DNA of 64,000 nucleotides from a virus. Shown here piece after piece: positions 39,107 through 63,802 of the stretch. The notes beneath the pieces are model-generated. The model saw only the letters and a program-made list of their open reading frames with translations, was not told where the DNA came from and ran no database searches. A program made the position numbers and the translations under genes. Numbering within the stretch: position 1 is the stretch's first letter; the number at the start of each line of letters is the position of its first letter. The stretch is from positions 58,908 to 122,907 of IMG/VR virus record IMGVR_UViG_3300045988_127389, one strand, 5' to 3'.

Positions 39107-39123
39107 GGGGTTTTGCAAAATAA

Positions 39124-39148
39124 AAAGCGTGGATTTCTCCACGCTAAA
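39124..39148 (-). terminator. terminator hairpin (GCGTGGATTTCTCCACGC)
   Basis: The same hairpin recurs at 63785-63802, each time with a T-run on the minus strand. Confidence 0.5.
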
Positions 39149-47192: not shown

Positions 47193-48524
47193 TTAGTCAT
47201 AACTGGGTTCATTCTTATCATCTCGAAATCTAACAAAGACAGGGAATTGCAAACTACGTAACCCAGTGTTCTTATCTTTAGATATACTTTTATATTTCAC
47301 CTCAATAATTTTACCGAAATATTCCCTCTTATTTGACCATATTTCAGCCCTAAGTTCGTCACTAAGCCCACTTCCAACGCCAACTGCATTATTGTCAAAC
47401 ATCACCCAAATTTTACCAAGCGTATTAGAAAGTCTACCATCACCAGCATCAAAACCAATAATTGGCAAGTCCATTGTATAGAATCGCTTTGCTTTTAGAA
47501 TACCGGAATTACGCTTGCACTGATACGGCACATCATAATTTACCATTACACCTTCCATACCAGCTTTCGTGGCGCGGTCGAGCCAATAATCAATCTTTGT
47601 TTCATCAGTACCTTCATAGAAAAATCTTACAACCTCAACATTTTCAATACCGAGACGATGAATGTCATAAGACAATTCAATCAACAAATCCTTACGAGCT
47701 TTGTACGAATCCTGAGAAATACCATTATCAAAATCTCTGTTAGAAATCCAGTCGAAAATAACATACTTGATACAAGACTTATCAGAGTCTGGACTGTTCA
47801 AAATACCAGTGCCTTTCGTAAAAGCATCGTTATCCGACAATCCTTCCTTATTTTTATATACAAGTTCACCATCAAGACACCAAACCGGAAGTTCTACTTC
47901 CAATTTCTTTAAATCTGACATAATGTGGTCTAGTCCAGTCCACAACTTACCCTGTCTGCTATACATTTTTCCACGATAACAAATACATCTGTTCCCGTTA
48001 ATTTTCTGACTAACAGAGAACCACTCGCCATGTGGAATCTTAACATTATCAATAGATTTTGCAAGTTGGACATCGAATACTGGAATTAACTTGCATCTAT
48101 ACACGCTATTGACAGTTTTTGCGTCAACGCCAAGTCGCAGTTGTTTGGTGAACACGTCATGTATAAACGCAATTTCATTGTTAAAGGTTGGTCTGCCCTC
48201 AAAAGCAAGTCTTACCTTTTCCACGTATGACTGAACCACCCAAAGCGTATCATCATTCGCCGGGTTGTTCATAATATATTTACACACATCTAGCAACGTC
48301 ATGTTAATATGAGGGTCTAATTCCTTTGCTAAATGTTTGCTTAATCTTGCGCTAGATATACCAGTTGTTACGTTTTTGTCTAGCAAAAATTTCAGAAGTT
48401 CATCTGTCTCCTTACTTCTGAAATTATTCAATGCCCACTCTTTGAGAGCTTTCTTACTTTGCATTCTAAGATTAGAACAAAACAAAGTACATTTAATATA
48501 TTCAATGTCGATGTCGAACATCAA
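47193..48524 (-). CDS. ATP-dependent DNA ligase (motif I variant KxNG)
   Basis: Motifs I KINGNR, III LDGELV, IIIa YVIFDW, IV EGVMV, V LKAKRF. Confidence 0.55.
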   Translation of the reverse strand: MMFDIDIEYIKCTLFCSNLRMQSKKALKEWALNNFRSKETDELLKFLLDKNVTTGISSARLSKHLAKELDPHINMTLLDVCKYIMNNPANDDTLWVVQSYVEKVRLAFEGRPTFNNEIAFIHDVFTKQLRLGVDAKTVNSVYRCKLIPVFDVQLAKSIDNVKIPHGEWFSVSQKINGNRCICYRGKMYSRQGKLWTGLDHIMSDLKKLEVELPVWCLDGELVYKNKEGLSDNDAFTKGTGILNSPDSDKSCIKYVIFDWISNRDFDNGISQDSYKARKDLLIELSYDIHRLGIENVEVVRFFYEGTDETKIDYWLDRATKAGMEGVMVNYDVPYQCKRNSGILKAKRFYTMDLPIIGFDAGDGRLSNTLGKIWVMFDNNAVGVGSGLSDELRAEIWSNKREYFGKIIEVKYKSISKDKNTGLRSLQFPVFVRFRDDKNEPSYD

Positions 48525-48874
48525 TCAAATCTCCTAAACTTTTTTGCATTTTCAAAATAAATTCCAAGTACATCTAAATACTGCGGTCTTATCACCGCTT
48601 CTGCGTTTTTAACAAATGCAAACCAAGTATAAGAATACGGTTGCATTACTTTTTCATAGTTTAACCGTTTCCATTTATCTCTTCCGTCCAAAACATACCC
48701 ATCTATATTATAATCACGAATTGCATCAAGCGCAAGTATTCTGCATCTCAACGTATCACGATTATTTAACATAAATAGATAGGCAACAGCCATTACTATA
48801 AATGGCATTGCTGTTAACCACGGATGAATATTAGCAAACTCTATTATACTATCAACCATCGGATTCACCTCCAC
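48521..48874 (-). CDS. membrane protein
   Basis: 117 aa with an N-terminal TM helix. Confidence 0.4.
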   Translation of the reverse strand: MEVNPMVDSIIEFANIHPWLTAMPFIVMAVAYLFMLNNRDTLRCRILALDAIRDYNIDGYVLDGRDKWKRLNYEKVMQPYSYTWFAFVKNAEAVIRPQYLDVLGIYFENAKKFRRFD

Positions 48875-49120
48875 CCAAGATGGATTTCACCTCATCACGG
48901 ATGGATTCAATTTCCTTAATTGCTTCCACTACCGACATATCTTTCTGTGATAGCTTACGCCTAGCTCTGATTTTGATGTAACCTTTTAACGCCGCATTAA
49001 AATCGTGGTAGTAGCCAAGCGTTTCTGCTGCCTACTTACCAGATTTATCAGTAGTAAAATGAACAAGGTCATAAGACCACTTCGATGGATTTATTGCATA
49101 CTGTTTGTTAATCTGAATCA

Positions 49121-49324
49121 TTACTTATTCACGTCCTTTGTAATATCTTCTGTAAATACTTTAACTTGCGGTTCAATATCATCAATACAGTTATTACATA
49201 AAGCCGCGAAACAACTACCAGAACCTTTATACGTATTCCATCTGATGCTCACAGCTGAAAGCTCTTCAGCTTCCTTCCCGCACCTAAAGCATCTTGGTTT
49301 TATATCCATTCCTCTACTTCGCAA
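49121..49324 (-). CDS. zinc-finger protein (67 aa)
   Basis: CFRCGK...CNNC motifs. Confidence 0.35.
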   Translation of the reverse strand: MRSRGMDIKPRCFRCGKEAEELSAVSIRWNTYKGSGSCFAALCNNCIDDIEPQVKVFTEDITKDVNK

Positions 49325-49680
49325 GTTAAAACCTCCTCTATCAAAAATGGGTCAAAATCGCAAGCTCTAAAAGCAACAGAACAGTTGGTTACATTACTAT
49401 AATATTCAAGCTGTGCAATTGCTTCTCTGCTTGCGGATTCATCACAGTTCTTGTCAAATAACAGTGCGAAGCACTTTTCATCTCTATTAAAAACAGGAAT
49501 GCATCGACCCACAAGACTTTTTTCAGTAGATGATTTCTTTAATATAGACTTATATTCAGAAAGGCATTCTTTATATGCTCTTAAAATCTTAGGAATATCT
49601 TCCCCTGTAGTCGTAACAGATACGGCAATAATAGGCATATCTGTATCAAGAATATCTCCACTGCGCTTAGACTTAATCAT
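49300..49680 (-). CDS. hypothetical protein (126 aa)
   Basis: ORF. Confidence 0.4.
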   Translation of the reverse strand: MIKSKRSGDILDTDMPIIAVSVTTTGEDIPKILRAYKECLSEYKSILKKSSTEKSLVGRCIPVFNRDEKCFALLFDKNCDESASREAIAQLEYYSNVTNCSVAFRACDFDPFLIEEVLTCEVEEWI

Positions 49681-49686
49681 AATTAC

Positions 49687-50055
49687 TCAAAATTCACCCT
49701 TAGTCCTCTCAAAAATAGAATAAATTGTATCATTATTAAAACTTCTTCTGTCGATATATACCCGCTTACCTTGCGTGTCATCGTATAACACATACTCATC
49801 TTCGACTATAATCATTGATGTAGCATCCAAAACACCGCGTAAATTCTTTCGCAGTTTTGCAAAATCAATGCCAGAATCATAGTACACCTCTGCGCCAGAT
49901 AACAAATGTCTAAAATGTTCTTCCGCATCATCTTTATATTTAGACTTCGCTATATCATAAAACGTATCAAGCGCATCACAGAAGAACGCAGCCTTTTCAA
50001 AATCTTTTCTTTTGCACAAACCAGCAAAATCACAAATCAAAGACTCGTAATCCAT
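49687..50055 (-). CDS. hypothetical protein (122 aa)
   Basis: ORF. Confidence 0.4.
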   Translation of the reverse strand: MDYESLICDFAGLCKRKDFEKAAFFCDALDTFYDIAKSKYKDDAEEHFRHLLSGAEVYYDSGIDFAKLRKNLRGVLDATSMIIVEDEYVLYDDTQGKRVYIDRRSFNNDTIYSIFERTKGEF

Positions 50056-50383
50056 TCTTTTAGGTTCTCCCTTTTTCTTTCAAGCCACCGTTGTTCATCA
50101 AGTATATTTCCAAAAAATAGACAAGTCGCTTGTATCTAATTATAATAATTTAGACACACGAAACCTTTAGGAATACTGGGTAGCCTCACATTCTCCTCAA
50201 ACATTATGTATATTGATGGCGGCATGAATGAATTATCTGCATTTGACACATGACCGCCACAACAGAATTTTGTCGTATATCCTTTTAGATTCAGCTACAC
50301 TATCACATCCAGTATGCTACTGTCGATATACGCAAAACTATGGTTGCGATTTTTACAATCCTTTTTCCAACAATCGCAACAAA

Positions 50384-50596
50384 TTAACGATACATCCTTC
50401 CTTGTCTCCACTTAATAAAGTTCACCCTGCTTTCACTCGCCAAACAAGCATGAACATCTTTCCATGATTCAGGGTATTGTTTCTCGTAGACAAAAGGAGG
50501 AACACCGTTTTTATATTCGTTACAACTGATAACATACATACATCTCAGTTTTCCATCTTCCAGACGGTACGATACATCATAATAGTACATCCTCAA
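50384..50596 (-). CDS. hypothetical protein (70 aa)
   Basis: ORF. Confidence 0.3.
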   Translation of the reverse strand: MRMYYYDVSYRLEDGKLRCMYVISCNEYKNGVPPFVYEKQYPESWKDVHACLASESRVNFIKWRQGRMYR

Positions 50597-51033
50597 TTCA
50601 CCCCAATCGCATGAAATTTCTTATTATGCTTCTTTAGATAATCAGAACGTGTTTTACTAACTCCATATACAGCAACAATTTTCACAAACGATGACTCCAT
50701 AGAGTTCCACACGTCGTCAGCACACTTCGCAAAGAGTCTGGCGACATATTTCTCCTTACCAAATTCTCCCGTTTCAGTTTTCCGCATCTGATACAACACC
50801 TCAAACTTTTTATACATCTGAGACTTTTGAGCATCATCAACCGGAACAAGAGCAGTACACTTACTACGCTCTCTAATAGTATAGCCACGATTCATGAGTC
50901 CCTTGATAATCCTATCTTCCATACTGCCAATAGGGACTTTTGTGGTGTCTACAATTACTTCTTTTAAATCATGGTTAATCTCGTACATCTCAACTTCTCC
51001 ATTAAAATGGTAAATCTTCATCTTGTCCACCAA
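50593..51033 (-). CDS. hypothetical protein (146 aa)
   Basis: ORF. Confidence 0.4.
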   Translation of the reverse strand: MVDKMKIYHFNGEVEMYEINHDLKEVIVDTTKVPIGSMEDRIIKGLMNRGYTIRERSKCTALVPVDDAQKSQMYKKFEVLYQMRKTETGEFGKEKYVARLFAKCADDVWNSMESSFVKIVAVYGVSKTRSDYLKKHNKKFHAIGVN

Positions 51034-51481
51034 AATTTACTAAATAATCAGTATTCTCGTCAACATGTGATTCTGGAAAAATATCCAGTTCGTCCTCATA
51101 TCTTACGAATAATCCAATATCAATTTTTTTACGTTTACTCTCTGGATAATTCTTAAATATGTATTCGTAGATTAACTTTAACAGTTCATCATCAGACACT
51201 TTATATCTGTCAGGACAGAATGTATATGTATTTAGTTCATTAAGAACCAGAAAGCCGTTTCTAACCAAATTGTGAAACGCTTTATTATATGTCTTGTAAG
51301 ACATACCAGTATCTTCCATGACGTGTGCGGAAAAGAGGACAAGTTTTGTAATATTTCTTGTTCTCATGCTCCACAAGTACATATAGAATTGAATTTCACA
51401 TGGCTCTAAATGACGAACTAATTCAACTGGGAATCTCTCGTAATTATAATCAGCGTAATCAATAATTCGCTGATTTGCCAC
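51002..51481 (-). CDS. putative winged-helix DNA-binding protein
   Basis: 159 aa. The central segment KTYNKAFHNLVRNGFLV is wHTH-like. Confidence 0.35.
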   Translation of the reverse strand: MANQRIIDYADYNYERFPVELVRHLEPCEIQFYMYLWSMRTRNITKLVLFSAHVMEDTGMSYKTYNKAFHNLVRNGFLVLNELNTYTFCPDRYKVSDDELLKLIYEYIFKNYPESKRKKIDIGLFVRYEDELDIFPESHVDENTDYLVNFGGQDEDLPF

Positions 51482-51533
51482 TGTTTTCGTTGTCAGAAGC
51501 TACACTCCTTATTTTAATGAAAGATTGATTTTA

Positions 51534-51722
51534 TTAAAAATTATAATCTTCATTAACAATCCCGTTAATAGCATTTTTAGTCTTTTTTGCTATTTCTTCA
51601 CCAATCATGCTATATCCCCTATATTGAATTGTGGCTTTAATAAATTCTGGATTATGAGCAAGACCACCGGCAATAGTATTTAACAATTCAACATACTCGT
51701 TTCTACATAAATTGATATTCAT
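51534..51722 (-). CDS. hypothetical protein (62 aa)
   Basis: ORF. Confidence 0.3.
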   Translation of the reverse strand: MNINLCRNEYVELLNTIAGGLAHNPEFIKATIQYRGYSMIGEEIAKKTKNAINGIVNEDYNF

Positions 51723-52078
51723 ACAAAATTCCTTTCATAAATTTCAAAGGCATATTTAAAACATTTTTCAAGCGGAAGTTTGTCACATGCCATCTTCTTG
51801 CTATTCTCATTATAAAGTGCCAATGCGATATTCGTGACACATGTATCTGCATTTGGATGCTCCTGAAGAAATTTTAATTTTTCTGTCTTTTTCTTTTCGT
51901 CCTCTTTTTTCTGAATCGCAAGTGCAGAAGCAAATCGTTGTTTAAGCAAATCCCTTGCCCAATCTGGGCAATATGGGTCATTAAGTGCTTCTTTTGCCTG
52001 CCCAAACGTGCACGTTGTGACAAATTCATACTGTCTAGGATGCAGTTGCGCATATTCTATATACCCTGAATCAGCCAA
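51719..52078 (-). CDS. hypothetical protein (119 aa)
   Basis: First gene downstream of the promoter at 52179-52208. Confidence 0.4.
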   Translation of the reverse strand: MADSGYIEYAQLHPRQYEFVTTCTFGQAKEALNDPYCPDWARDLLKQRFASALAIQKKEDEKKKTEKLKFLQEHPNADTCVTNIALALYNENSKKMACDKLPLEKCFKYAFEIYERNFV

Positions 52079-52178
52079 TATATCTCTCTCCTTAATCTAA
52101 AAGAATTATCTATGATAGTTTTTCCTGAGTTTGTTATGCAAACTCTAAAAGAAATTCGTCTTGAATATTCTCTTTTTT

Positions 52179-52208
52179 ATTATACCATACTACTATACTG
52201 TTTGTCAA
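52179..52208 (-). promoter_or_regulatory. sigma70-type consensus promoter (divergent region)
   Basis: AAACCACTTGACA-18-TATAAT. Confidence 0.55.
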
Positions 52209-52602
52209 GTGGTTTTGAAAAATTTTTTATGTGGATTTTACTTAGGTAAAAGTTGCCGAAGATATAATATATATTACATTTATAGTCTTGTAGGAACGTC
52301 TGTAAGAGGTCTTTGTTTCAGTAAACAAGTTACTCCATTTATGTCCGAAAGTCACCCACAGACGCTTCTAGCCGCCTGTCCTGCCAAGATTCTTACCAAA
52401 TTTTACCACTACCCATCTCTGTAAAATCTAAATAAGAATAATTATTATTTATTTTAGATTATCCTTATTATATATCTTAGGGAAATTTTCCCTAAGCACC
52501 CTCAAAGCCCCCTGTTTTATTGTCATTCTAGCACATTCAAGTTGAGCCGTCAAGGGTTCTAGCCCAGTTCATAAAAAGTTAAGAATTTTCCTTTAGATTC
52601 CC

Positions 52603-52631
52603 TTGACAAACCGTGATTTATTTGATATAAT
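52603..52631 (+). promoter_or_regulatory. sigma70-type consensus promoter for the plus-strand small-gene array
   Basis: CCCTTGACA-17-TATAAT on the plus strand, 16 nt before the first plus-strand ORF. Confidence 0.6.
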
Positions 52632-52646
52632 AGGGTCACAAAAGCG

Positions 52647-52931
52647 ATGGAGGTACAAGATATGGAAAATACTGTGACTAGACCTGTGGATATGGTAAGA
52701 CTTGGCAACCAGAAGCATGGGTTTTCTTTTCAGGCAAGAGGCGATATCTACATGCTGACCGACTTATATCCAATCGAATCTGAGGATTATGACGTTATGC
52801 AGACTGTGTGTATGACAAACGGTAGAATGCAGGGATTTGGCGCAGATGAATATGTTGAACCTGTTTATACGTTTACAGTTCACGCAAATCCTAGTTTAGC
52901 AAAGTCTGAAAGGGTTGTCAAGGGCTTATGA
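52647..52931 (+). CDS. hypothetical small protein, first gene of plus-strand array
   Basis: Follows the plus-strand consensus promoter at 52603-52631. Confidence 0.45.
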   Translation: MEVQDMENTVTRPVDMVRLGNQKHGFSFQARGDIYMLTDLYPIESEDYDVMQTVCMTNGRMQGFGADEYVEPVYTFTVHANPSLAKSERVVKGL

Positions 52932-53344
52932 TACTTACTATCAAAAAGGCAGACTATAAATCTAAGTTAAAGGCTGATTTTGTAAAAAATAACCTGTTGG
53001 AGGTATGCAAGTGGTTCAACTTCATCGAGGACAACGGCCTTGCTGAGTTTCCTGACAATCATATCACAATGTATATTAACTTAGATTATCATATTGATTT
53101 GCCGGATTGCTATATGAACAATGGTGTCTACTTTTATTCCTATAGTATGGGAATAGGCCGTAAACTTCCTACAAGACCGGCTTGGGATTGTTACGGCATT
53201 TTTGCGCCGAACAAGATTCCTATGCAATTCGTATTTATCAATAAGACCAGTAACATTTTTAACTCTTTTAACTTTGGTGCTCAGTTTTCTGCATTAGAGA
53301 CTGACTTGGTAGAAATTGACACGAGGGAATACGATGGTTGTTGA
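52928..53344 (+). CDS. hypothetical small protein (138 aa)
   Basis: Translationally coupled array member. Confidence 0.45.
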   Translation: MILTIKKADYKSKLKADFVKNNLLEVCKWFNFIEDNGLAEFPDNHITMYINLDYHIDLPDCYMNNGVYFYSYSMGIGRKLPTRPAWDCYGIFAPNKIPMQFVFINKTSNIFNSFNFGAQFSALETDLVEIDTREYDGC

Positions 53345-53735
53345 GTTAATTTACAGCGAAACTTTAGATGTCCTACAAAAATCTGAAGCAAAGCCGTATA
53401 TCAAAAATGCACTCGATATTATCAATTTTATGGTCATGAATAACTTGGAGGATATTAACAGTTGCGACCGTTACTTTATGGCACTAACTTTTGATGAGCG
53501 AATCTCTTATCCAGAAGTGTACGGCTATAACAATTATTGCAGAGCGCTGTCGCATTGCAATGGTAGACTCCCTAGCAATGGGGATATGCTGTGTTATTTA
53601 TCTCGGTATAGGAACTACATCGAAATTGTATTTGTTGATAAAGAGAAAGACGTTTACTTCTCTTTAGATTTATTTACAAGTGTTGTCAATGCTATTAGAT
53701 ATGGCATTACGCTTGATACGGAGAAATTTGAATGA
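53316..53735 (+). CDS. hypothetical small protein (139 aa)
   Basis: Array member. Confidence 0.45.
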   Translation: MTRGNTMVVELIYSETLDVLQKSEAKPYIKNALDIINFMVMNNLEDINSCDRYFMALTFDERISYPEVYGYNNYCRALSHCNGRLPSNGDMLCYLSRYRNYIEIVFVDKEKDVYFSLDLFTSVVNAIRYGITLDTEKFE

Positions 53736-54166
53736 AACTTTACGCAAGATTGGCAGATATGTCTGATATTGAGTATCTCAAGAATAACAATATGTATCAG
53801 ACAGCTGTTAAATATATGAGTATACTTAATGAGCTTGGGTTACTTAGGTGTCGTCCTTGGACACAGACCGACAATGGAAACGCAAGCGATAATGTAGTGA
53901 CTGTTATTGCTTTTCGTCAGGTGGATGCAGACGAAGAAGATATTGCGATTGCCGCAGAATGTTATCATCCGTACAACAACGAAGAGTACATGAGACTGCC
54001 TTATAAGACGGACAAAGATATTGCGCTTACATTTGTCAATGAAAGACATCGTGGAGATGTATCTTTTATATTCCACGAAAACTATACTGGTGAGTACAAT
54101 GAAGTACGCTTTCTGTCTGGAGATTGGAGCAGAGGCAGGCCGAGAGTTCTGCTTGGTGAAATTTAA
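53732..54166 (+). CDS. hypothetical small protein (144 aa)
   Basis: Array member. Confidence 0.45.
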   Translation: MKLYARLADMSDIEYLKNNNMYQTAVKYMSILNELGLLRCRPWTQTDNGNASDNVVTVIAFRQVDADEEDIAIAAECYHPYNNEEYMRLPYKTDKDIALTFVNERHRGDVSFIFHENYTGEYNEVRFLSGDWSRGRPRVLLGEI

Positions 54167-54175
54167 GGAGTATGT

Positions 54176-54517
54176 ATGTCTAAAGGTTTTATGAGTTTTG
54201 ACGATATCCCGCAAGACGTTCGTAATAATATCTTAGGTGTAATTACGGCGAATCATATTGATTTTGACCCGACTAAGATTACTGGCGGAGTAAAGGATGC
54301 TTTTGATTTCACAGAGATGGAAAATCAAAACGGTCGGCTTGGGTATAATGGCGATACTTACGACACTACTTATAGAGTCCCTGATTATAACGGTTTCCGT
54401 GTATATGTAAACCAACCTGTTTCTGTCGGTGGCAATATTAGGTGTTTGGCTTTAGATTTTTACGATAAAGACATTGAGCGCTCTGATTACATCTATATGG
54501 AAATTGATAAAAGGTGA
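54176..54517 (+). CDS. hypothetical small protein (113 aa)
   Basis: Array member, preceded by an AGGAG RBS. Confidence 0.45.
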   Translation: MSKGFMSFDDIPQDVRNNILGVITANHIDFDPTKITGGVKDAFDFTEMENQNGRLGYNGDTYDTTYRVPDYNGFRVYVNQPVSVGGNIRCLALDFYDKDIERSDYIYMEIDKR

Positions 54518-54526
54518 GGTGCAATA

Positions 54527-55105
54527 ATGAATCATACAGGAGTTGATACGTTTAGATTATCTCAGGTAGTGAAGGACGAAGCGAATAAATTCTTAGATGC
54601 CGCAGAAATTGGCACTGACGAGGAATTTGTTGTTTGCGCTACTGAAATCCTCTCATGTCACGAATTTGAATCAAGAGGTTACTGTCGCGTACCTTGTACA
54701 ATCGGCAAGGCATATATTAAACAGTATCTTCCTAGAAACCATCATAAAATTTATCGTCTTGCATATATGACAACACTTGATGCAAATGGAAATGAAAGAC
54801 ATCCGTTTTATCGCGTTATTAAACTTAAATCACAGCTGTCGTATACGCATCCAAGTGGCAATGAGCTTTATACATTCACCATTGATAGTAATATGGATAG
54901 CGTTACAGTCAATGATAGTGACTCTACATATACATTACCCATGTCTAATACGCTTGATACGGCTATTGACGCTTATGGCTATTATGGTAATTCATTTAGA
55001 CGTGATTACGATTATGCGTATGGTGAGTCACCTTACGCTAGAGTAACAACAACAGATGTCACATACAATGCTCGTGTGTCCGAAGGAGTGCGGAGTCTAC
55101 GATGA
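54527..55105 (+). CDS. small-protein family paralogue (192 aa; RVPC motif)
   Basis: Contains YCRVPCTIGKAY, shared with downstream paralogues. Confidence 0.45.
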   Translation: MNHTGVDTFRLSQVVKDEANKFLDAAEIGTDEEFVVCATEILSCHEFESRGYCRVPCTIGKAYIKQYLPRNHHKIYRLAYMTTLDANGNERHPFYRVIKLKSQLSYTHPSGNELYTFTIDSNMDSVTVNDSDSTYTLPMSNTLDTAIDAYGYYGNSFRRDYDYAYGESPYARVTTTDVTYNARVSEGVRSLR

Positions 55106-55404
55106 CAGATGAAAAGTGGAAAGCCATTACAAGATATTTTTGGGAGCATACCGCCCCTGAACTCGGACTTGTCGAGAAATATTGGAGAAGTAAAGACCAT
55201 TATACCGGTCATCATTCTTTCATTTGCGATAATAATGGACAGCTTCAGGTTTATGCTTCAACATACCAAATCTATAGGATTCCATCATTGTATCTAAATA
55301 CAAGAGTGTTCACGGACGCAAAAGAAAATTGCGATAGTTTTCGTGTTTATTTCTTTGAGGAAGGAACCGAACTGCTTCATAGCGAGCTATACGTAAGGAG
55401 ATAA
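55102..55404 (+). CDS. small-protein family paralogue (100 aa)
   Basis: YRIPSLYLN motif. Confidence 0.45.
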   Translation: MTDEKWKAITRYFWEHTAPELGLVEKYWRSKDHYTGHHSFICDNNGQLQVYASTYQIYRIPSLYLNTRVFTDAKENCDSFRVYFFEEGTELLHSELYVRR

Positions 55405-55406
55405 TA

Positions 55407-55835
55407 ATGTCTGCTGTGCTTTTAGGGAAAATGAGGGGCGGTAATAGTGCACACCTCAACGTTTTTGCGAGACATGCGTTTGCACTTGCAAATGAATACC
55501 TACCCGACTCTAACTTTCTTTTTATTGGTTCACGTGCATTGTGTACCTCTGAAAATGTAAAGTTTTATAATGGCAATATCAGTGGAGATTGTATCGGTAA
55601 TACTGGTGGAGCTTATGTCAATGACGGTTGTACTTATGTGCAACTCTATTCATATAGAGTACCTTGTAGAGAATGTGATTTATTTATCTATGTTGGCGAT
55701 TATCAGTATTACTATGTTACGATGAAGTGTTTTGATGGTGATACTGAATATTATGTAGAATTTACATTTGAGAGAGAAATGGGCGTTCCGTTTAATAAAG
55801 CAAATATTCAAAACATTACTGAAGAGGAAGTATGA
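55407..55835 (+). CDS. small-protein family paralogue (142 aa)
   Basis: YRVPCRECD motif. Confidence 0.45.
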   Translation: MSAVLLGKMRGGNSAHLNVFARHAFALANEYLPDSNFLFIGSRALCTSENVKFYNGNISGDCIGNTGGAYVNDGCTYVQLYSYRVPCRECDLFIYVGDYQYYYVTMKCFDGDTEYYVEFTFEREMGVPFNKANIQNITEEEV

Positions 55836-56239
55836 CAAATTCTGTAAGACACTTTAAGTTAAGCTGTTATTGTAGATACTTGTTCTATATTATGCGCCTA
55901 CTTGGTGTAGATATATCTAAATATCAAGTTCATGTACCTAAATCTGTGCACCTAGAAAATTGTATAGATTATATAGAGCTAGAGCAAGGTAGCCCATATT
56001 TTCCATTATTCGATGTATCTTCTGATGACACTATAAGGGCTTGGCATCGTTTACCGTCACAACCATTTGATAAGAACGCATGGGTGTTCTATGCAAGAGG
56101 TATATATGAGGACAAGTATTTTTTAACTGTGTTCTGTATTGACTATCCAGATGAATTTCTTGAGATAGAAATACAGAGATGCAGAAAATGTGGTGATTTT
56201 ACCACAGATAGGAGAAACTATGGACTGCAAAGAGCTTGA
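55832..56239 (+). CDS. small-protein family paralogue (135 aa)
   Basis: HRLPSQPFDKNAWV motif. Confidence 0.45.
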   Translation: MTNSVRHFKLSCYCRYLFYIMRLLGVDISKYQVHVPKSVHLENCIDYIELEQGSPYFPLFDVSSDDTIRAWHRLPSQPFDKNAWVFYARGIYEDKYFLTVFCIDYPDEFLEIEIQRCRKCGDFTTDRRNYGLQRA

Positions 56240-56636
56240 TAGAATTTCCAGAAATGGGTTTTCAAAAATTTTTGAGGATGAAGTAAGGTCTGTTCTTAAA
56301 GATATTGATTTGGGTATTGATGAAGCTCCTAGTTTTTTACGTTTTAGTATGTATGATTTTGTAGAATTTGCAAACGAGGGAAACTTCTTCAGAATCCCAT
56401 GTGCATCAAAAACGGTTCATTGTAGGAAGTTGCATGATTTCTGGTGTAATAAATATGAGATTGTGTACAGAACTAATTTGAGCACGTCTGGTCGTATGTC
56501 AAAGCGCGAGTTCATGCGGTCTGTTATTATCGTGTTTTCGGATTTTGTACCTGTGGAATTGACCAGAGATGTACGTTCCGAGGATGAGCGTGTCATTAGT
56601 GAACTTATTCAGTCTATTAGTATGAGGAGTTTCTAA
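56220..56636 (+). CDS. small-protein family paralogue (start at internal Met)
   Basis: FRIPCASKTVHC motif. Start trimmed from the track ORF to MDCKELD. Confidence 0.4.
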   Translation: MDCKELDRISRNGFSKIFEDEVRSVLKDIDLGIDEAPSFLRFSMYDFVEFANEGNFFRIPCASKTVHCRKLHDFWCNKYEIVYRTNLSTSGRMSKREFMRSVIIVFSDFVPVELTRDVRSEDERVISELIQSISMRSF

Positions 56637-56954
56637 ATGCTCGGTTATAAACGTAGAGATGTAGTTGAGTCTTTTTGGGACGACTACAATAATGCAGGAT
56701 TCGATAAACGATACTGGCGTGAAACATCTAAAAGTTGCTATCGTTATTCCAGAATTGAACAGGATAACGGCAAGTTAATTGTCGATGGACTTCGGCAATC
56801 ATCCACTGTGCGAATCCCTTGCTCGGTTCATGATGTTATGTTATATTTATGGACTAATTTTGATAAAAGATATATATGTTTGATGTTCCACAAGGTTGGA
56901 GATAAAGAACTTTACGTTCATAGATATTATGTAAAGGATTATAGAAATGAATGA
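56637..56954 (+). CDS. small-protein family paralogue (105 aa)
   Basis: VRIPCSVHDV motif. Confidence 0.45.
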   Translation: MLGYKRRDVVESFWDDYNNAGFDKRYWRETSKSCYRYSRIEQDNGKLIVDGLRQSSTVRIPCSVHDVMLYLWTNFDKRYICLMFHKVGDKELYVHRYYVKDYRNE

Positions 56955-57261
56955 ACTAATTAAAAAATACAGAGAGTATGTTGAACATTTAATCGTGCTT
57001 TCTTGTGGCGATACATCCGATTACAAATTTGATGAAACTCGCGCGGATAACATTGAAGGACAGCCGTTGCGTGGGAACAATTATGTGATATGGCAAGGAA
57101 GTGTTAATAAGGAGTGGGTAAGGATTCCTAGCCCTGACTTCGACAAGGATAGCGTGGTGTGCTATTATTGTGGTCGTTATTATGATAGATGGCGTGTACT
57201 TAACGCAGTCTCTAGTACGCATCCAGATAAACTGATTGTTGTTTCGTATACACATAAATGA
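56947..57261 (+). CDS. small-protein family paralogue (104 aa)
   Basis: WVRIPSPDFDKDSVV motif. Confidence 0.5.
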   Translation: MNELIKKYREYVEHLIVLSCGDTSDYKFDETRADNIEGQPLRGNNYVIWQGSVNKEWVRIPSPDFDKDSVVCYYCGRYYDRWRVLNAVSSTHPDKLIVVSYTHK

Positions 57262-57273
57262 CGGAGGGATTTA

Positions 57274-57624
57274 ATGCTTATCAATCCTAAAAAGAAGAAT
57301 GAAGAACGTGAACTTATTGATAGTTATAAAGAATATCTAAAAGATGTAATCAGGATTAAAGGTATCAATCCTGACAGATACAAGTTTGTTCATGGATATG
57401 TAAGCCACGTCACAGATTCAGTTGTTGCTGGTGGTTCACATCCTAAATCATTTGGTAACGAATTAAATAATTGGGAAAGGATTCCTAGTCCAGAATTTGA
57501 TAAGGATAGTTGGGTGTATTTATACAATGATTGTAGTGGTAAAAATCGTATTGTTATCAATGCAATTGAATATAATAGACGTGTCGTAGTTGTTAGATAT
57601 GAATGTCCTGCTGATAGTGACTGA
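57274..57624 (+). CDS. small-protein family paralogue (116 aa)
   Basis: WERIPSPEFDKDSWV motif, the closest paralogue to the preceding ORF. Confidence 0.5.
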   Translation: MLINPKKKNEERELIDSYKEYLKDVIRIKGINPDRYKFVHGYVSHVTDSVVAGGSHPKSFGNELNNWERIPSPEFDKDSWVYLYNDCSGKNRIVINAIEYNRRVVVVRYECPADSD

Positions 57625-57705
57625 TAAGGTCACTATTTTTATATCGTTAATTTTTATACGGATAAGAAAGTAAGTTTCTCTGAAAACATATGAGGAGAGA
57701 AGAAT

Positions 57706-58287
57706 ATGAGATTAGTTTCAGAATTGTGGAAATCAGTTGGTATCGTAAATGGCATAGATTTTACTGGTATTTACGAAATAAGTACAAAGGGTAGAGTTAA
57801 AAGGTTAGAAAGAACTGCAACCGATAAGCATGGAAATAAATACTATGTCCCATTTGCTATACGGTACGGCGTTCCGATGAGTAAGCGTGAAGGTTATTTG
57901 AGAATAATACTAAGGAAAAACGGTGAATACACTACAGCTTATGTACATAAACTTGTCGCAGAGGCGTTTCTTATAAATCCAAATGGATATGAAGTCGTGA
58001 ATCATAAAGACGAGGATAAACAAAATCCAGATGTCAATAACCTTGAATGGTGTACAAGAAGTTATAATGTACTTTATAGCAGAACGCCAGAAATTGTTGC
58101 AAAAATTTCAAAACCTGTTGCGCAGATAGATATGGATGGCAATATCGTAAAAATATGGCCTTCGATGAAAAGTACAAGTGAAGGTGGTTTTATATATCAA
58201 AATGTTCAAAGATGTGTGAATGGGAAACTGAAAAAACACAAGGGGTTTATATGGAAGAGTGTTAATGATATTGATAAATCGGGCTGA
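57706..58287 (+). CDS. HNH homing endonuclease (NUMOD4 + HNH_3)
   Basis: WKSVGIVNGIDFTGIYEISTKGRVKR (NUMOD4) and VHKLVAEAFLINPNGYEVVNHKDEDKQNPDVNNLEW (HNH_3). Confidence 0.7.
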   Translation: MRLVSELWKSVGIVNGIDFTGIYEISTKGRVKRLERTATDKHGNKYYVPFAIRYGVPMSKREGYLRIILRKNGEYTTAYVHKLVAEAFLINPNGYEVVNHKDEDKQNPDVNNLEWCTRSYNVLYSRTPEIVAKISKPVAQIDMDGNIVKIWPSMKSTSEGGFIYQNVQRCVNGKLKKHKGFIWKSVNDIDKSG

Positions 58288-58738
58288 TATAGCCCAATTC
58301 TCGTAGATATAATAGCTACGTGCCGTACAACGTTGTATACAACACCGAGTTTGTATTCTACCCCCTACCATAGTGGGTTAATGGGTTAGCCACCACTAAC
58401 CGCGTTCAACCCCTGACGGTTAGTTACGACTAACTAACTTCATCGCTTTACCGTGCTGAAGCGATTGTTACATACTTGCTTAGATGCTCACGATGTATAC
58501 AACGTATCAGAACAATGTTGTATCCAACGTGACAGTGCAACGTGATAGACCAACGATGTATACAATAAAAAATAAAACAAAAAATCCTTTACCACACTAA
58601 AGCACTAAAGACTTCAGCATGGTAAAGGACTAAAGTTTTTAATAATAATTCCTATTTACCAGATTTTCCAGTTTTTGCCTTTTCTGGTAAATAGGAACGT
58701 TTGCTATTTGTTGTTGTGCGGTGTGTTGTTTCGTGGGT

Positions 58739-59023
58739 TCACCGCAACGGCTTGCAGTCAATAACCCACCAAGCCCACGGGTTAGTAGGTTCACCGTTCA
58801 CATCGAAGTAAACCTTCACTTCCTCACCAACATGATAGTTAGTGCCCTCAAACTCGAACACGTCCCCACCGACGTTTACCTCAACCTGTTCGCCGCACAC
58901 GGACACTATTTTACCATTCTTTGCCAGCTGGTTAGTCGGCTCAAACTCCCCTGCACCCACGTTGCAAGCGGTAAAGGTGAACACGACAAACAGGACGGAA
59001 AGAACAACAAAAAACTTTTTCAT
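58739..59023 (-). CDS. putative lipoprotein (94 aa)
   Basis: Signal peptide with a lipobox-like TFTAC. Confidence 0.4.
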   Translation of the reverse strand: MKKFFVVLSVLFVVFTFTACNVGAGEFEPTNQLAKNGKIVSVCGEQVEVNVGGDVFEFEGTNYHVGEEVKVYFDVNGEPTNPWAWWVIDCKPLR

Positions 59024-59121
59024 AATAAATTAAACCCCATTCTTATTTTAGATTAAATAAATAAAGTGAAAACGCGGACTTGTTGAAAGTCTTTCAATAG
59101 TATCCGCTTGTTATGTATTAG

Positions 59122-60015
59122 TTAAATATCCTTGTTGCGTTCTGGACGTTGATATTTAGCTTTCCCGGTTGCGTTCTTGACAAATTCATTGTTAATTAAA
59201 ACGCTCGCGCGGTCTACACTAATTTCAGCGTTTGCGAAACGCTTTAGAATGAGCGCCCATTCCTTGCACAGGCAAAACCCCCATGTGATTTGTACGGGGT
59301 TGACATAGTGGAATAAGCGAACCTCAAAAAGTTCGCTTTTGTCCAGATTCAACCATGAATAATAGTATTTGCTAAATTCATTGTTATCTTCTGCGTAGTG
59401 CGTAAAATTGCGCCCGAAAACTTTTACAGTCCATTCTGGATTGTTCCGCATTGTCTGCTGAACTTTTCCAAAAAGCTCGCTCGCATGATTGCGAATTTTC
59501 CATACTGCATTATCATACCCATCAAAAGATATGTTGATGTGATGACCACAACGGCCTGAAGTCATATCAACATATTGCTCAAGGCTTTTATAATATGCCT
59601 TGTTGCCATGTAGATTAGTAAAAGTAAACGATTTTAGCTCGTCATAAACAGAACCGTCATGCTCACGCCAAAGCGCGAATCGAGCAAGGAAGCCGCCCAT
59701 ATTTTCAGGCGTTTCCTCGAATTTATAGCGGCTGATTTCAATTTCCGGGGTCATATAAACCCCGGCTTTTGTCGCTTTGGTCGTTCCAAACAATGGCCGC
59801 TCAACGCCGTTTGGTGTTACAAACGGCTCATGGTAACGGCGTTGACGAATGCAAGCCTCGTGCACATACACACTCGGCTCATGGTTTGTGCTGGCGTGAA
59901 CGAATGCAAACTCGCCTATTTGCTCTCCGCAAATTGCGCACTTCGTCCCCGTGCGGGGTCTGCTGTTTTCGAGAATTTCATCGAAAACGGTTTTTGTTGT
60001 TCTTGCTTTCAACAT
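59122..60015 (-). CDS. hypothetical protein (297 aa) with N-terminal Cys/His cluster
   Basis: Long ORF inside the repeat-rich region, with a CAICGE...HEAC cluster. Confidence 0.45.
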   Translation of the reverse strand: MLKARTTKTVFDEILENSRPRTGTKCAICGEQIGEFAFVHASTNHEPSVYVHEACIRQRRYHEPFVTPNGVERPLFGTTKATKAGVYMTPEIEISRYKFEETPENMGGFLARFALWREHDGSVYDELKSFTFTNLHGNKAYYKSLEQYVDMTSGRCGHHINISFDGYDNAVWKIRNHASELFGKVQQTMRNNPEWTVKVFGRNFTHYAEDNNEFSKYYYSWLNLDKSELFEVRLFHYVNPVQITWGFCLCKEWALILKRFANAEISVDRASVLINNEFVKNATGKAKYQRPERNKDI

Positions 60016-61141
60016 AATTAAACCTACTTTCTCGGCCTATATGGGCCGTTTCAAAATGTTTTTGTTCCATGTGGAACAATCGGGTTTTTGTTTCATGCGG
60101 AAACTTCGCCTTGCACTTTTCTTTTTGTTCCGTCCCTCGTGCAAGTCGGGACAATGGCCGGGAACGATATTCAATTTTCAATGTGCTGTAAACTTTACTG
60201 TTTACAAGACTATTATACAGTTGTATCAGTTGTAAATCAATATTGATTTTGTTGTTTTTCTGGTTGTGTTTTCAGTTGTGACGTAAAAGAAAACGGTAAA
60301 AACGCTATGATTTTTTGTGCAAAACGACACAAGTTTCGTTGTATACAACACGAACTTGGTCTGTTTTGTGCAATGTGCACACAAAATCCCAACAAATCTT
60401 TTATATTTTTGTACAATATGCTACAACAGCTAGTTGTGGGTCTGTTTTTAGCACACATAAGCACCGAGTGCTAAAATGAGATATACTAACTTTCAACAAA
60501 AAATTTTATGAAAATAAAGAAAAATGCGCTGGGCACTTTATCTTTTATATCTTGATATGAAAAAAGCTTTACTTTCTTTTAGTTTTACGATGCTTTAGCA
60601 GTTAGTGCGACTAACTGCTAAATTCATAGACTGTTCATAATCTGTTGTATACAATCATGCCTTTTGCGTTGTATACATTAGCAATCGGTCTGCTGGACTG
60701 CTAGAGTTAGTTAGTCTAAACTAACCAGTGGGGCTGTTCAGTTAGTTATAACAAACTAACTTTATCACACTAAAGCACTGAAGTTAGTTTGTCATAACTA
60801 ACCGCTGCATCCATCGTTGGATACAAGCTAGTATCCATTCTTGTGAGCAACGCGCACTCGCAAATACATTTCAGGCTCGCCCCATCTACAACGAAAAATC
60901 TACAAAAATCTATACTTTTCAATCTATGCACTATATTTTCATATCTTGATATGAGTCGAATTTACAAACCTATAACGCTCTAGTTCATATCAAAATATGA
61001 AAACGGAAAAAATTCATATAATTGCAAAAACAGAAAAATCTCTATAAATATACAAACTTCTGTCATATCTTGATATGAAATTCTAAAACAGAAAATTTTA
61101 AATAAATTCATATCTTGATATGAAATAACAAAATATAAAAG

Positions 61142-61172
61142 ATAGGCTCACGCTGAAAAGCGTGAGCCTATC
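61142..61172 (-). terminator. rho-independent terminator
   Basis: Hairpin ATAGGCTCACGC-TGAAAA-GCGTGAGCCTAT. Confidence 0.5.
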
Positions 61173-61255
61173 TGATTTTACTTCACCTGTTGCACTCGGA
61201 TAAATCCAAAGTCATCACGGATAACGTAGCGGTGTGTCGGGTACAAATACGGCAT

Positions 61256-61468
61256 CTAGTTTGTAGTCCAGCCTCGACCGTACCACCGGAGTTTCCAGTA
61301 CAGACCCTCTTGATAAAGGATTCTGTTCATCTGCCGACCTGTTAATGGCTTCTTTGCCGGTGTGTACTTCTCGCCGATGTAAAATCCCTCGCTGTCGTGG
61401 ATTGCTTCAACCTTGCTCCATGCCTTGCTCAAGCGGCTGTTGGCGTTCTTATAAGATTTCTTGCTCAT
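61256..61468 (-). CDS. hypothetical basic protein (70 aa)
   Basis: ORF followed by the terminator hairpin at 61142-61172. Confidence 0.35.
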   Translation of the reverse strand: MSKKSYKNANSRLSKAWSKVEAIHDSEGFYIGEKYTPAKKPLTGRQMNRILYQEGLYWKLRWYGRGWTTN

Positions 61469-62363
61469 GGTATGTACCTCTCTGTTTATCTGTCTGTCGT
61501 TATGTATTCGGTTTGGGCTTTGGCCTGTCGCCCTTTCCGTGATTCTATTCTACCAGAACGCAAGACAAAAATCAATAGTAAATTGAAAAGTTCACAAATT
61601 GTTCACAATTTAGTGCAGCGAAGCGCATTCGCCCTCTTCAAGTTCATATCTTGATATGAAACAATCTGATTGCAATTCTCTTTTAGATTTCATATCGAGA
61701 TATGAATTACTCAAATCAAAAAATCTGTAAAAATCATATCTTGATATGAAATTCTAGCGTTCTACACATTTATTTTTTCATAGCTTGATATGACCCAATT
61801 CTATAATACAAATTCATATCTTGATATAATTTATTAAAAATTTTCTATAAAAATTATTTTATAAAATTTTTTCTATTTTGATATTTGAATATTTGATTTA
61901 TTTTTTCTTATTTTGTATTCTACAAGCGTGGAACTGTACAGAAACTTTGTATATGGCTGTATAGTATGCCAAACTACTGGAATAATTTTGTAAATCCTTA
62001 TAGTAGCCTTGCCGAAGTGCTGGAATCTTGTTTGTATCCGCTCTAGTAGTCCTGCAAAGCCATGTGCAATGTTTTCTGTGCTGTCTAGTATGATTTGCCG
62101 CACAGCAAACAAGCCCGTTGTAGCGTCTCTGTGTGGCATATAACGTCGCCGGGTCGTTTCTCCTAGTCCGGGCTTTCTGGACTGCAATTATTATACCATA
62201 TCAGGCGCAAAAAGTCCCACGAATCAAGAATTGTTCACATTCTGGTTTTTTATATCTTGATATGATTTTGTAAATCTAAAGAGAACTGTCGGGAGTCATA
62301 GCTTGATATGAAAATTTTTCGTAGCATGAGTTAGTTATGACTAACTAACTTTGTTAAAAAGAA

Positions 62364-62392
62364 AACAACCTGATTCTTCACATCAGGTTGTT
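62364..62392 (-). terminator. rho-independent terminator after hicA-like gene
   Basis: Hairpin AACAACCTGAT...ATCAGGTTGTT followed by TTTTCTTTTT on the minus strand. Confidence 0.55.
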
Positions 62393-62416
62393 AGAGGAGG
62401 GACTTTGTTAATTATT

Positions 62417-62611
62417 TCACACGTCCCAAGGGATATTATGCTGTTTACAAATGTCTTGCCAAAGTTTACCGTTTACACTCCTTGCAAGCGGTACGGTTAA
62501 CATCTCGCCTTCACCTCTGCGGTAAATGTGATGTGAACCTTTTACATGGTCAAGCGTGAAACCAGCTCGGCGCAATGCTCTTTGCACTGTAATTCTTTTT
62601 ATTTCTTTCAT
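62417..62611 (-). CDS. hicA: HicA-like (YcfA family) mRNA interferase toxin homologue
   Basis: GFTLDHVKGSHHIY...MLTVP...G.L..I.KQ matches the HicA consensus. A terminator hairpin follows at 62364-62392. Confidence 0.6.
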   Translation of the reverse strand: MKEIKRITVQRALRRAGFTLDHVKGSHHIYRRGEGEMLTVPLARSVNGKLWQDICKQHNIPWDV

Positions 62612-63050
62612 TTTAGATTCCTTTCTGCATTTCTGCTATCAAGTAGTTTATTTATTTTAACCCCGCCTTCTGATTATAATTATACTCGCTTTTAGGCAAA
62701 TGTCAATACTAAAATCAAAAAAATTTAAAAAAATATATTTTCTTTTTTCTTTTGATTTTTACTTTTTCATATCAAGATATGATTTTGTAAATTTGTAAAT
62801 TGTAAAAGATTTCATATCAAGATATGAAGTAGACCAAAACTTTGTTAAATTTTTGATTAGGTTTTACGTTGTATACAACAAAAAGATTGTTAAATATTTG
62901 GTTAAACGCATTGTTGTATACATCATTGTACAGCAAGAAGATTGTTAAATATTTGATTAGATGCAGCGATGTATACAACGTCATATCTTGCTATGAATTT
63001 TTCGTTGCACAGGTTAGTTTACGCTAACTAACTCACTTTACAAAAGTAAA

Positions 63051-63068
63051 GCGGGGATTTCTCCCCGC
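63051..63068 (-). terminator. terminator hairpin (GCGGGGATTTCTCCCCGC)
   Basis: GC-rich hairpin followed by a T-run on the minus strand. Confidence 0.5.
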
Positions 63069-63092
63069 CCACTTTATTTGTGTGAACTTCAG

Positions 63093-63419
63093 TTAAATGA
63101 AGTCGCACTCCTCGGCAATGGCTTCCAGCATGACACTTTCCTGATTGAATGCCATCTTTGCCCACGTTGCAAGCCCCACAGCGTCCTCCCGCGTGGTATA
63201 GCACAGCTCTACACGCAAGGACGGTTCGCGCACCGTCTCGCCGTTGTTGTGCTTATAAACGCCGTCAGCGCTATACACAGTAGCGCCATTGAAACGCCGT
63301 GCCACTTCATTGTTCAGAAGTGCCTGTGCGTTTGCGGGGTCAAGCTCCAACTTTTTGGTATCCTTATCAAACAGGCCGATGGTAACGATGAATTTTGTAG
63401 TCATAATGTTTTCCTCCAA
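63093..63419 (-). CDS. hypothetical protein (108 aa)
   Basis: ORF followed by the terminator at 63051-63068. Confidence 0.4.
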   Translation of the reverse strand: MEENIMTTKFIVTIGLFDKDTKKLELDPANAQALLNNEVARRFNGATVYSADGVYKHNNGETVREPSLRVELCYTTREDAVGLATWAKMAFNQESVMLEAIAEECDFI

Positions 63420-63784
63420 TGTTATGTATTTGTGTCATCCACTGTCTATATTATAGCATATTCAGCGGATTCTGTCAATACCCAATTTTTAGATTTTTGG
63501 GATTTCTTTTGTTGTTTTTTGTATTCCCTCCTTGCAAGTATATAATACCATATCCGCGTTAAAATAACAATTCGCATATTGCACAAACATACAGGCAATT
63601 TTTTGTGCATATTTCTACCCGGTTAGTTAGTCAAAACTAACCGCGCCTGTGGTGCGTCATATCAAGATATGAAACGCTCGATAATTTACAAACTAGAAAA
63701 TTCATATCAAGATATGAAAAAGCCAAAACAGAAAATAATGAAATAATCATATCAAGATATGAAATAGAAAATACAAAAAGAAAA

Positions 63785-63802
63785 GCGTGGATTTCTCCAC
63801 GC
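63785..63802 (-). terminator. terminator hairpin (GCGTGGATTTCTCCACGC)
   Basis: Duplicate of the 39.1-kb hairpin. Confidence 0.5.

Follow-up and report, generated by a model that had tools for sequence, protein, structure and literature searches.

One regulator acting at many dispersed sites beside many promoters is known from the phiC31 repressor, which binds conserved inverted repeats, from P1 C1 and from RK2 KorB, the sites being palindromic in phiC31 and RK2. In the Firmicute phage phi29, protein p4 binds inverted repeats upstream of the A2b, A2c and A3 promoters, centred at about -70 to -82; from there it holds RNA polymerase and so represses strong early promoters of the sigma-A type. 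The stoperators of Cluster A mycobacteriophages (L5, Bxb1) have a consensus that varies by lineage and tracks the cognate repressor (PMC6550527, PMC9283540); they are oriented with transcription, lie mostly away from promoters and stop elongation (PMC6550527). Each is an asymmetric site bound by a monomer. In the PeSL cassettes of T4-type phages, a conserved early promoter and a stem-loop terminator bracket each small early gene, and the cassettes provide break points for indels and replacements (PMC2839356, PMC4122927). Here we analyse a 64,000-nucleotide stretch of a large gut-metagenome phage (the window; positions 58,908 to 122,907 of IMG/VR record IMGVR_UViG_3300045988_127389), in which a region flagged as repeat-dense, window positions 58300-63800, carries three short motif families that we call A, B and C. 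Overall, we consider it reasonably probable that arrays of motif A serve as operators of a dimeric, probably phage-encoded regulator that switches the presumed early gene cassettes jointly, with two further proteins acting through motifs B and C.

All three families are far more frequent in the flagged region than shuffled sequence would allow. Motif A (TCATATC-WW-GATATGA / TCATATCWWGATATGA) matched 18 times with at most two mismatches, nine of the matches being perfect, between 60545 and 63762 (0.24 expected from shuffles); a third mismatch added a single match in the window, at 59562. Motif B (GTTGTATACAAC) matched eight times with at most one mismatch between 58332 and 62979 (0.23 expected), and at up to two mismatches there were 11 matches in the flagged region and three scattered elsewhere in the window. 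Some copies of B belong to direct repeats of ~49 nucleotides (nt) (family D7, 62829-62977), which are present three times, 45 and 55 bp apart. Motif C, GTTAGT-N(3-8)-ACTAAC, occurs eight times (58419, 60601, 60706, 60741, 60783, 62330, 63013 and 63622; 0.075 expected from block shuffles), and seven of these copies are exactly GTTAGTT-N6-AACTAAC, with constant arms and a variable 6-bp spacer. Terminator-like hairpins are enriched as well (18 versus 4.1 expected), and the coding share of 58300-63800 is ~35% with the set of open reading frames (ORFs) chosen in the analysis. An earlier note on this DNA had described a gene-poor, terminator-rich region with three motif families; that character was borne out, and its counts and coordinates were accurate (18 copies of A, 8-11 of B and 8 of C).

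The same note had implied a boundary at 63800 and expected the motifs not to recur at similar density in the remainder of the genome, which holds to the left and fails to the right. With at most two mismatches, motif A was missing from the remaining 58 kb of the window; none was found in the 10 kb to the left of the window as seen in a relative (L131); scattered copies of B excepted, the other motifs were likewise not found in these stretches. On the right we used a close relative, an IMG/VR contig of 148.6 kb that matches window 48122-57690 at 95% identity and the flagged region at 81-97%, with four loci contiguous. In this contig motif A runs on, equally dense, for >20 kb beyond the window end. 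Window, relative and left extension together cover ~100 kb of a genome of ~113-150 kb. The composite of the window and the relative's continuation holds 70 motif A sites in 24 arrays of one to five sites over ~25 kb. Motifs B and C, unlike A, are confined to the flagged 5.5 kb, and the close relative has them solely in its counterpart of this region. The flagged 5.5 kb is thus the promoter-distal edge of a block of at least 25 kb of small minus-strand operons, and no discrete locus.

This continuity bears on the suggestion that the region is a long terminal repeat or packaging region, or part of one. Phages of the SPO1 and T5 types have early host-takeover genes in their terminal repeats, and related contigs from a single sample end up 113, 115 and 148.6 kb long. 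However, five independent assemblies are collinear through the region and no contig ends or breaks there, the motifs are tied to promoters, and no terminase or pac-like feature lies nearby. We regard this explanation, which the earlier note had also offered, as unsupported and very improbable.

The arrays have a fixed place in a repeated cassette. Along the minus strand, the order is terminator, motif A array, A/T-rich stretch, sigma-A promoter, GGAGG ribosome-binding site (RBS) and one to four small genes; the layout was identical in every cassette of the composite, and the flagged region's own units often have motif C after the terminator and contain one or two small genes each. The array consensus is T(C/A)ATATC-TT-GATATGA, a 16-bp palindrome whose core positions are 85-100% conserved across the composite sites, with random flanks. 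Centre-to-centre spacings cluster at 22-27, 32-39 and 44-46 bp, multiples of ~11 bp that would place successive dimers on one face of the helix. A promoter-like site lies within 150 bp downstream of the proximal copy in 16 of the 24 arrays, compared with 16% of random positions, and the distance from the centre of the proximal site to the start of the -35 is 32-79 bp. The orientation of the central TT/AA shows no consistent relation to gene direction. Both the anatomy and the link between array and promoter are direct observations. The features of the flagged region are as follows, in window coordinates.

63657-63762, unstranded: motif A array, three perfect copies at 45-bp spacing; in minus-strand reading it comes after terminator 63810-63777 and before the promoters of gene 63093-63419
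62981-62996, unstranded: single motif A copy with one mismatch, adjoining the motif B repeats
62767-62827, unstranded: motif A array, two copies at 45-bp spacing, proximal centre 68 bp upstream of the -35 at 62706
62250-62311, unstranded: motif A array, two copies 46 bp apart, ahead of the extended -10 promoter at ~62218-62190
61644-61829, unstranded: motif A array, five copies at spacings of 46, 44, 44 and 36 bp, proximal centre 76 bp upstream of the -35 at 61575
60939-61123, unstranded: motif A array, four copies at spacings of 46, 78 and 45 bp, downstream of terminator 61173-61140
60545-60560, unstranded: single motif A copy with one mismatch (motif scan)
62868-62979, unstranded: three motif B copies (62868, 62913, 62968) within the ~49-nt direct repeats
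60644-60679, unstranded: two motif B copies (60644, 60668; motif scan)
60338-60349, unstranded: perfect motif B, ~100 bp upstream of the -35 at 60240
58332-58566, unstranded: four motif B copies (58332, 58492, 58517, 58555) together with a motif C (58419-58438), in the gap where the plus-strand module and the minus-strand early region converge
60601-60802, unstranded: four motif C copies, 60601 (short-spacer variant), 60706, 60741 and 60783 (motif scan)
62330-62349, unstranded: motif C, GTTAGTT-ATGACT-AACTAAC, directly beyond terminator 62392-62364
63013-63032, unstranded: motif C, directly beyond terminator 63070-63049
63622-63641, unstranded: motif C, between the three-copy A array and promoters 63570 and 63478
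63450-63478, minus strand: promoter TTGACA-17-TG-TATAAT, perfect sigma-A type, serving gene 63093-63419
63570-63542, minus strand: second promoter of gene 63093-63419, TTGTTA-17-TG-TATTAT (promoter pattern)
62679-62706, minus strand: promoter TTGACA-16-TATAAT, a perfect consensus match, serving the hicA-like gene
62190-62218, minus strand: extended -10 promoter GGGACT-17-TGgTATAAT, reading into a conserved stretch of ~280 nt (~62183-61900) in which the ORF is not conserved
61547-61575, minus strand: promoter TTGATT-17-TG-TAGAAT, serving gene 61256-61468
60212-60240, minus strand: promoter TTGATT-17-TATAAT, serving the operon of the 297-amino-acid gene and the lipoprotein gene
63093-63419, minus strand: gene of 108 amino acids, DUF3574 / S-AdoMet-lyase-like (domain match)
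62417-62611, minus strand: gene of 64 amino acids, HicA-toxin family (domain match)
61256-61468, minus strand: gene for a small basic protein, 70 amino acids here and 96-98 in relatives
59122-60015, minus strand: gene of 297 amino acids with an N-terminal Cys/His cluster, a lineage-specific protein
58739-59023, minus strand: gene of 94 amino acids (ORF), with a signal peptide that we read from the sequence as lipoprotein-like
61140-61173, unstranded: bidirectional intrinsic terminator with a 15-bp stem (hairpin scan)
63810-63777, 63070-63049, 62392-62364 and 58630-58584, minus strand: other terminators (hairpin scan)

A short repeat, TGTGAACAAT in minus-strand reading, is present at 61590-61612 and 62228-62240, just upstream of the promoters at 61575 and ~62218, whose -35 elements are weak.

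Promoters linked to arrays form a class of near-consensus sigma-A sites, (G)GTA-TTGACA-N17-TGnTATAAT, and almost all strong promoters of host type in the block have an array ahead of them. A second class of 12 promoters, AACC(C/A)C-TTGAC(A/T)-N17-TGnTATAAT, in many cases with GTTCC immediately after the -10, drives replication and nucleotide-metabolism genes from minus-strand sites in window 4274-52208 (for example 52208, 41203, 39106, 35241, 31084, 29701, 24868, 23731, 12215 and 8089). Second-class promoters never occur with motif A in the window, and this restriction, again observed directly, means that motif A marks one regulatory class rather than the whole genome. The AACC(C/A)C box hints that the genes of replication and nucleotide metabolism have an auxiliary factor of their own.

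Dispersal over many promoters also speaks to whether the palindromes could be iterons of a replication origin, or ParB/KorB-type sites of a partition centromere that double as operators. RK2 KorB does bind dispersed palindromes upstream of many promoters, the distant relatives at the polymerase level are plasmid-like C. difficile prophages, the five-copy array adjoins a near-invariant AT-rich block of ~90 bp, and motif B lies in iteron-like direct repeats. An iteron origin, however, is a single locus with an AT-rich unwinding element and usually the initiator gene beside it, and the earlier note's iteron field is difficult to reconcile with 24 promoter-linked arrays over ~25 kb; no initiator domain is adjacent, and the invariant block stands beside one array only. 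Sites of the parS kind are palindromes of 13-16 bp that are few or in one cluster, whereas here 70 palindromic sites form dispersed, phased, promoter-linked arrays. An element with such a centromere encodes a ParB-family protein, usually along with a ParA partner; the 111 ORFs scanned, from the window plus the early region of the relative (~2/3 of the genome), included no ParB or ParA domain, and ParM and initiator domains were equally missing from the window and early region. The C. difficile element pCD1602_4 has no comparable palindrome field, and the GC-skew profile merely tracks gene orientation. An origin or centromere, the ParB-like option of the earlier note included, therefore seems improbable to us.

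The AT-rich block itself (~61835-61925) is near-invariant in six aligned relatives, including ones that are ~72% identical, and contains a site at 61879 resembling the variant palindrome A' described below.

Comparison with relatives revealed a change of the whole palindrome between lineages. Metagenome contigs 74-96% identical to the region keep the sites, with indels in the spacers, and the five-copy array follows this pattern. L017, at ~74% identity, keeps motif A. L081 and L082, which are syntenic and have ~72% DNA identity over the early region and 46-52% identity in the 297-amino-acid protein, contain no motif A at all. In its place they carry A', TGATATT-NN-AATATCA (42 copies in L081 and 23 in L082), at the same array positions, including those of the five-copy array, and with the same spacing of 22, 33 and 45 bp. 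Because L017 is about equally divergent yet keeps motif A, the change from A to A' is a discrete switch and not drift. A third form, A'' (TCATATT-NN-AATATGA), is found in a distant lineage, L134/L135 (143- and 176-kb contigs; 30% amino-acid identity in a marker protein). The layout recurs there: small operons have TTGACA/TATAAT promoters, and 11 of 14 arrays lie 9-104 bp ahead of one. In the half-site, positions 2 and 7 read C/C in A, G/T in A' and C/T in A''. L081 and L082 retain motifs B and C unaltered and in syntenic places; L134/L135 have neither. The switch between lineages is thus seen directly in the genomes.

Outside these lineages the searches found little. IMG/VR yielded no A' site pairs; MT835481 (partial) and C. 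difficile pCD1602_4, relatives at the polymerase level outside the clade, have no palindrome field; and GenBank phages and PLSDB plasmids gave no DNA match to the region. A similar palindrome in L018 (SKDY01000159.1) was set aside as belonging to an unrelated element with a ParA-like gene: at L018 1598-1850, ACATCATATCATGATATGATGT palindromes stand directly upstream of the ParA-like ATPase gene, with a similar core and a different context. Two contigs from the same sample as the window, L131 (113 kb; IMGVR_UViG_3300045988_088999) and L132 (115 kb; IMGVR_UViG_3300045988_094428), match its left part at 94-98% protein identity, and neither contains an exact motif A 18-mer or a homologue of the 297-amino-acid gene. 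By coordinate arithmetic they would end near window 46-49 kb, which suggests strain-level variability or assembly breaks before the early region.

Between relatives, whole cassettes have been gained, lost or replaced, with end points in or beside arrays and promoters. From these alignments, the repeated cassettes appear to double as joints for gene gain, loss and replacement. Could the repeats then have no binding function of their own, being copies of a mobile promoter-terminator cassette of the PeSL kind spread by duplication and recombination? Indels that end at arrays or promoters fit this idea, as does the repetition of promoter, A/T-rich upstream stretch and RBS along with the palindromes. 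Yet within arrays only the 16-bp palindrome is conserved and the spacers and flanks are not, the spacing is phased, and in the sister lineages all sites have changed jointly to a new palindrome. These three properties point to selection on the site itself, and we find the purely mobile origin hard to credit.

Conservation of the site leaves the identity of its reader to be considered. The phage might exploit a transcription factor of its host for the timing or conditioning of early genes, the lineage variants then reflecting different hosts. The 185,579 species-representative genomes contained no motif A site pair, and single perfect 18-mers were scattered across phyla at chance level with no taxon enriched. 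To our knowledge, motif A is unlike the consensus sequences of CodY, CcpA, Rex, Fur, PerR, LexA, ArgR and NrdR. The A and A' lineages are moreover 72-86% nucleotide-identical throughout, and the protein p1 (window 51005-51481) is 92-94% identical between them, which suggests overlapping hosts. The case for a host factor draws on the failure of Pfam and PHROGs scans to recognise a phage-encoded binder, and on a CIRCE-like element (the consensus of HrcA sites) within the region; phages reportedly do carry host-regulator sites, such as CtrA sites in alphaproteobacterial phages. Taken together, we judge a host factor unlikely.

We therefore return to a regulator supplied by the phage, and infer that motif A is the operator of a lineage-specific, dimeric, sequence-specific DNA-binding protein. 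It is most likely encoded by the phage, mainly because a concerted switch at ~40-70 sites in each genome implies that a cognate binder co-evolved with them, as is seen for the stoperators of Cluster A mycobacteriophages and their repressors (PMC6550527). The earlier note had listed sites of a dimeric phage regulator among its options, and this is the option that we favour in view of the invariant palindromic arms, the helical spacing, the fixed promoter position and the whole-palindrome switch. In the mechanism we propose, dimers would bind motif A cooperatively on one helix face, at about -70 to -250, and the binder would switch the whole promoter class together. Repression would be the likelier direction, since the promoters are near consensus with A/T-rich upstream stretches and should be strong unaided; activation is also possible. 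Repression might shut off early genes in the lytic cycle or silence them in a carrier or a prophage. The protein could mask or block the upstream element, or bind upstream and trap RNA polymerase from there, as p4 of phi29 does. Two other proteins, of a specificity conserved across syntenic relatives, would use motifs B and C as operators.

Several points weigh against this reading. Pfam scans of the 111 ORFs found no repressor, ParB or other recognised regulator, and PHROGs scans of the early ORFs and of window 36-58 kb found no regulator either. By the pattern used, 8 of the 24 arrays have no promoter within 150 bp, some promoters being farther off or having a weak -35. The sites lie upstream of the core promoter and not over it, the usual position of an activator. 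A host factor that varies from host to host could also produce the motif switch, and further sites may be present in the part of the genome beyond the ~100 kb seen. Finally, we infer the 'early' timing from gene content and promoter type alone.

Candidate binders were sought among the phage proteins. The protein p1 and its paralogue p2, encoded in the relative, gave weak HTH_36 and RepL hints, and a low-confidence model (pLDDT 44) had the helix-strand order of a winged helix; both are apparently expressed from second-class promoters. Their putative recognition helix is the same in the A and A' lineages, and an identical helix across the A-to-A' switch rules them out as readers of motif A. More speculatively, they are reasonable candidates for binders of the conserved motifs B and C. 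The small basic protein encoded at 61256-61468, which is flanked by the largest arrays, was rejected because its allele types do not track the A or A' motif type. The 297-amino-acid protein is not a likely DNA binder, since its invariant residues, many of them acidic or His, look like an enzyme active site; its confident model (pLDDT 86.7) had as its only fold neighbours glutamine synthetase, GmaS and YbdK-type ligases, all of them weak matches (E at least 0.011), so that on the predicted structure it is possibly a glutamine synthetase-like amidoligase. Two orphan proteins in common with the distant lineage had no relative among solved structures.

The window encodes a DnaE-type DNA polymerase, a primase-helicase, DNA and RNA ligases, a PhoH-like protein, a PurZ/PurA-like enzyme, two D12-class adenine methyltransferases, ThyX and 13 tRNA genes. 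Its nearest polymerases are from a human faecal phage (59% identity), and from a plasmid-like C. difficile phage and 160-kb Bacillus siphoviruses (~40-42%). Because the promoters match the sigma-A consensus with an extended -10 and the RBS is GGAGG, the host is likely a Firmicute. Minus-strand genes occupy 1-52 kb and 58.7-64 kb, and a plus-strand module at 52.6-57.6 kb is followed by an HNH-endonuclease gene that reaches to 58.3 kb. Genes of the block include HicA, a MazF/PemK-like toxin, the SAM-lyase-like protein and many small orphan ORFs, and by this content it looks like an early, host-takeover region.

Some of the DNA between these genes may be transcribed without being translated. The conserved stretch of ~280 nt at ~61900-62183 (minus strand) has its own extended -10 promoter; its longest ORF in relatives measures 88, 88, 81, 36, 67 and 12 amino acids, and no gene was called in the equivalent stretch of L081. 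RNAalifold gave no covariation support there, and we regard the stretch as a candidate non-coding RNA. A block of ~130 bp at 60800-60930, between the four-copy A array and three C sites, shows almost 100% conservation in four relatives amid more variable neighbouring DNA, and may form the 5' portion of a non-coding transcript from the minus strand. At a permissive threshold, Rfam returned no family and only spurious microRNA hairpin matches. Motif A as an RNA hairpin would have a 2-nt loop, and in motifs A and C it is the sequence of the arms that is conserved, and not merely their pairing, while loops and spacers vary. For this reason, and for want of an Rfam family, we take both motifs to be DNA sites and not structured RNA.

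We also noted features that are separate from the arrays. The HNH/NUMOD homing-endonuclease-like gene (57706-58287, plus strand) is precisely missing from the 95%-identical relative (junction L005 9550/9552), and L082 has an I-HmuI_NUMOD-like gene at its position; it looks like a mobile endonuclease insertion. The plus-strand run at 52647-57621 consists of ~10 paralogous small genes with a common motif like R(I/V)P(S/C)..FDK and is kept in L081 and L082. The PurZ / adenylosuccinate-synthetase-like gene (phrog_1211) and the D12-class N6-adenine methyltransferases are at window 37781-39142, 10102-10851 and 23731-24417. An inverted repeat, TTAGCACAC-N9-GAGTGCTAA, at window 60448-60474 departs at a single position from the CIRCE (HrcA operator) consensus. 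The match is perfect in L014 and the repeat degenerate in L005 and L016, where pairing is still possible via G-U; the repeat may be an HrcA site or an RNA hairpin. In-frame TAG codons interrupt three genes for which relatives show a sense codon at that place or have the N-terminus intact. One, at window 61256-61258 (TTN*MPYLY here versus TTNQMPYLY in L005), is why the small basic protein has 70 amino acids here; the others are at the N-terminus of p1 (window 51500-51502) and in p2 (at about position 21080 of the relative). The 13 tRNAs of the window include no suppressor, and the TAGs may be nonsense variants or may point to read-through of this codon.

If a single binder reads these arrays, one protein switches at least 24 strong promoters at once in common uncultivated gut phages. 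The forms A, A' and A'' would then be a natural experiment in which a regulator and ~70 operators change specificity together, and the variants would predict which lineages should cross-regulate and which should not. The cassettes would offer a ready set of strong, co-regulated Firmicute promoters with insulating terminators, and the motif a simple metagenome marker for the early region of such phages. For annotation, the supposed gene-poor repeat region becomes regulatory DNA, possibly with one or two non-coding transcripts. Tentatively, we raise a broader possibility that we hold to be rather doubtful as a whole: an uncultivated gut phage family (113-176 kb) may run its whole early set via phased arrays of one palindrome ahead of each early promoter, through a reader of unrecognised fold whose specificity has switched at least twice, giving an immunity or competition code between co-infecting relatives and a promoter-upstream counterpart of stoperators.

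Set against the known systems, the arrays are like stoperators in that dozens of copies of one short site extend over a large part of the genome, with a consensus that depends on lineage (A, A' and A'' at syntenic or equivalent positions). They are unlike them in being 16-bp palindromes, in forming phased arrays upstream of promoters (16 of 24 arrays) and in coming with no repressor gene recognised in the scans; the asymmetric, transcription-oriented sites away from promoters that distinguish stoperators were not found here. The resemblance to PeSL cassettes lies in the sigma-70-type promoter and stem-loop terminator that flank small ORFs at indel break points, but PeSL cassettes lack upstream operator arrays and a lineage-specific palindrome, and the present cassettes have both. 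The phi29 system has four sites at one locus, compared with at least 70 sites and at least 24 promoters here, where no p4-like protein was detected. For phiC31, P1 C1 and KorB there is a single site per promoter, and the binders are known, none of them homologous to anything found in this phage, in which phased arrays of two to five sites take the place of the single site. Relative to known multi-operator control of early genes, what is new is the combination of phased palindrome arrays upstream of one promoter class with at least three specificity variants.

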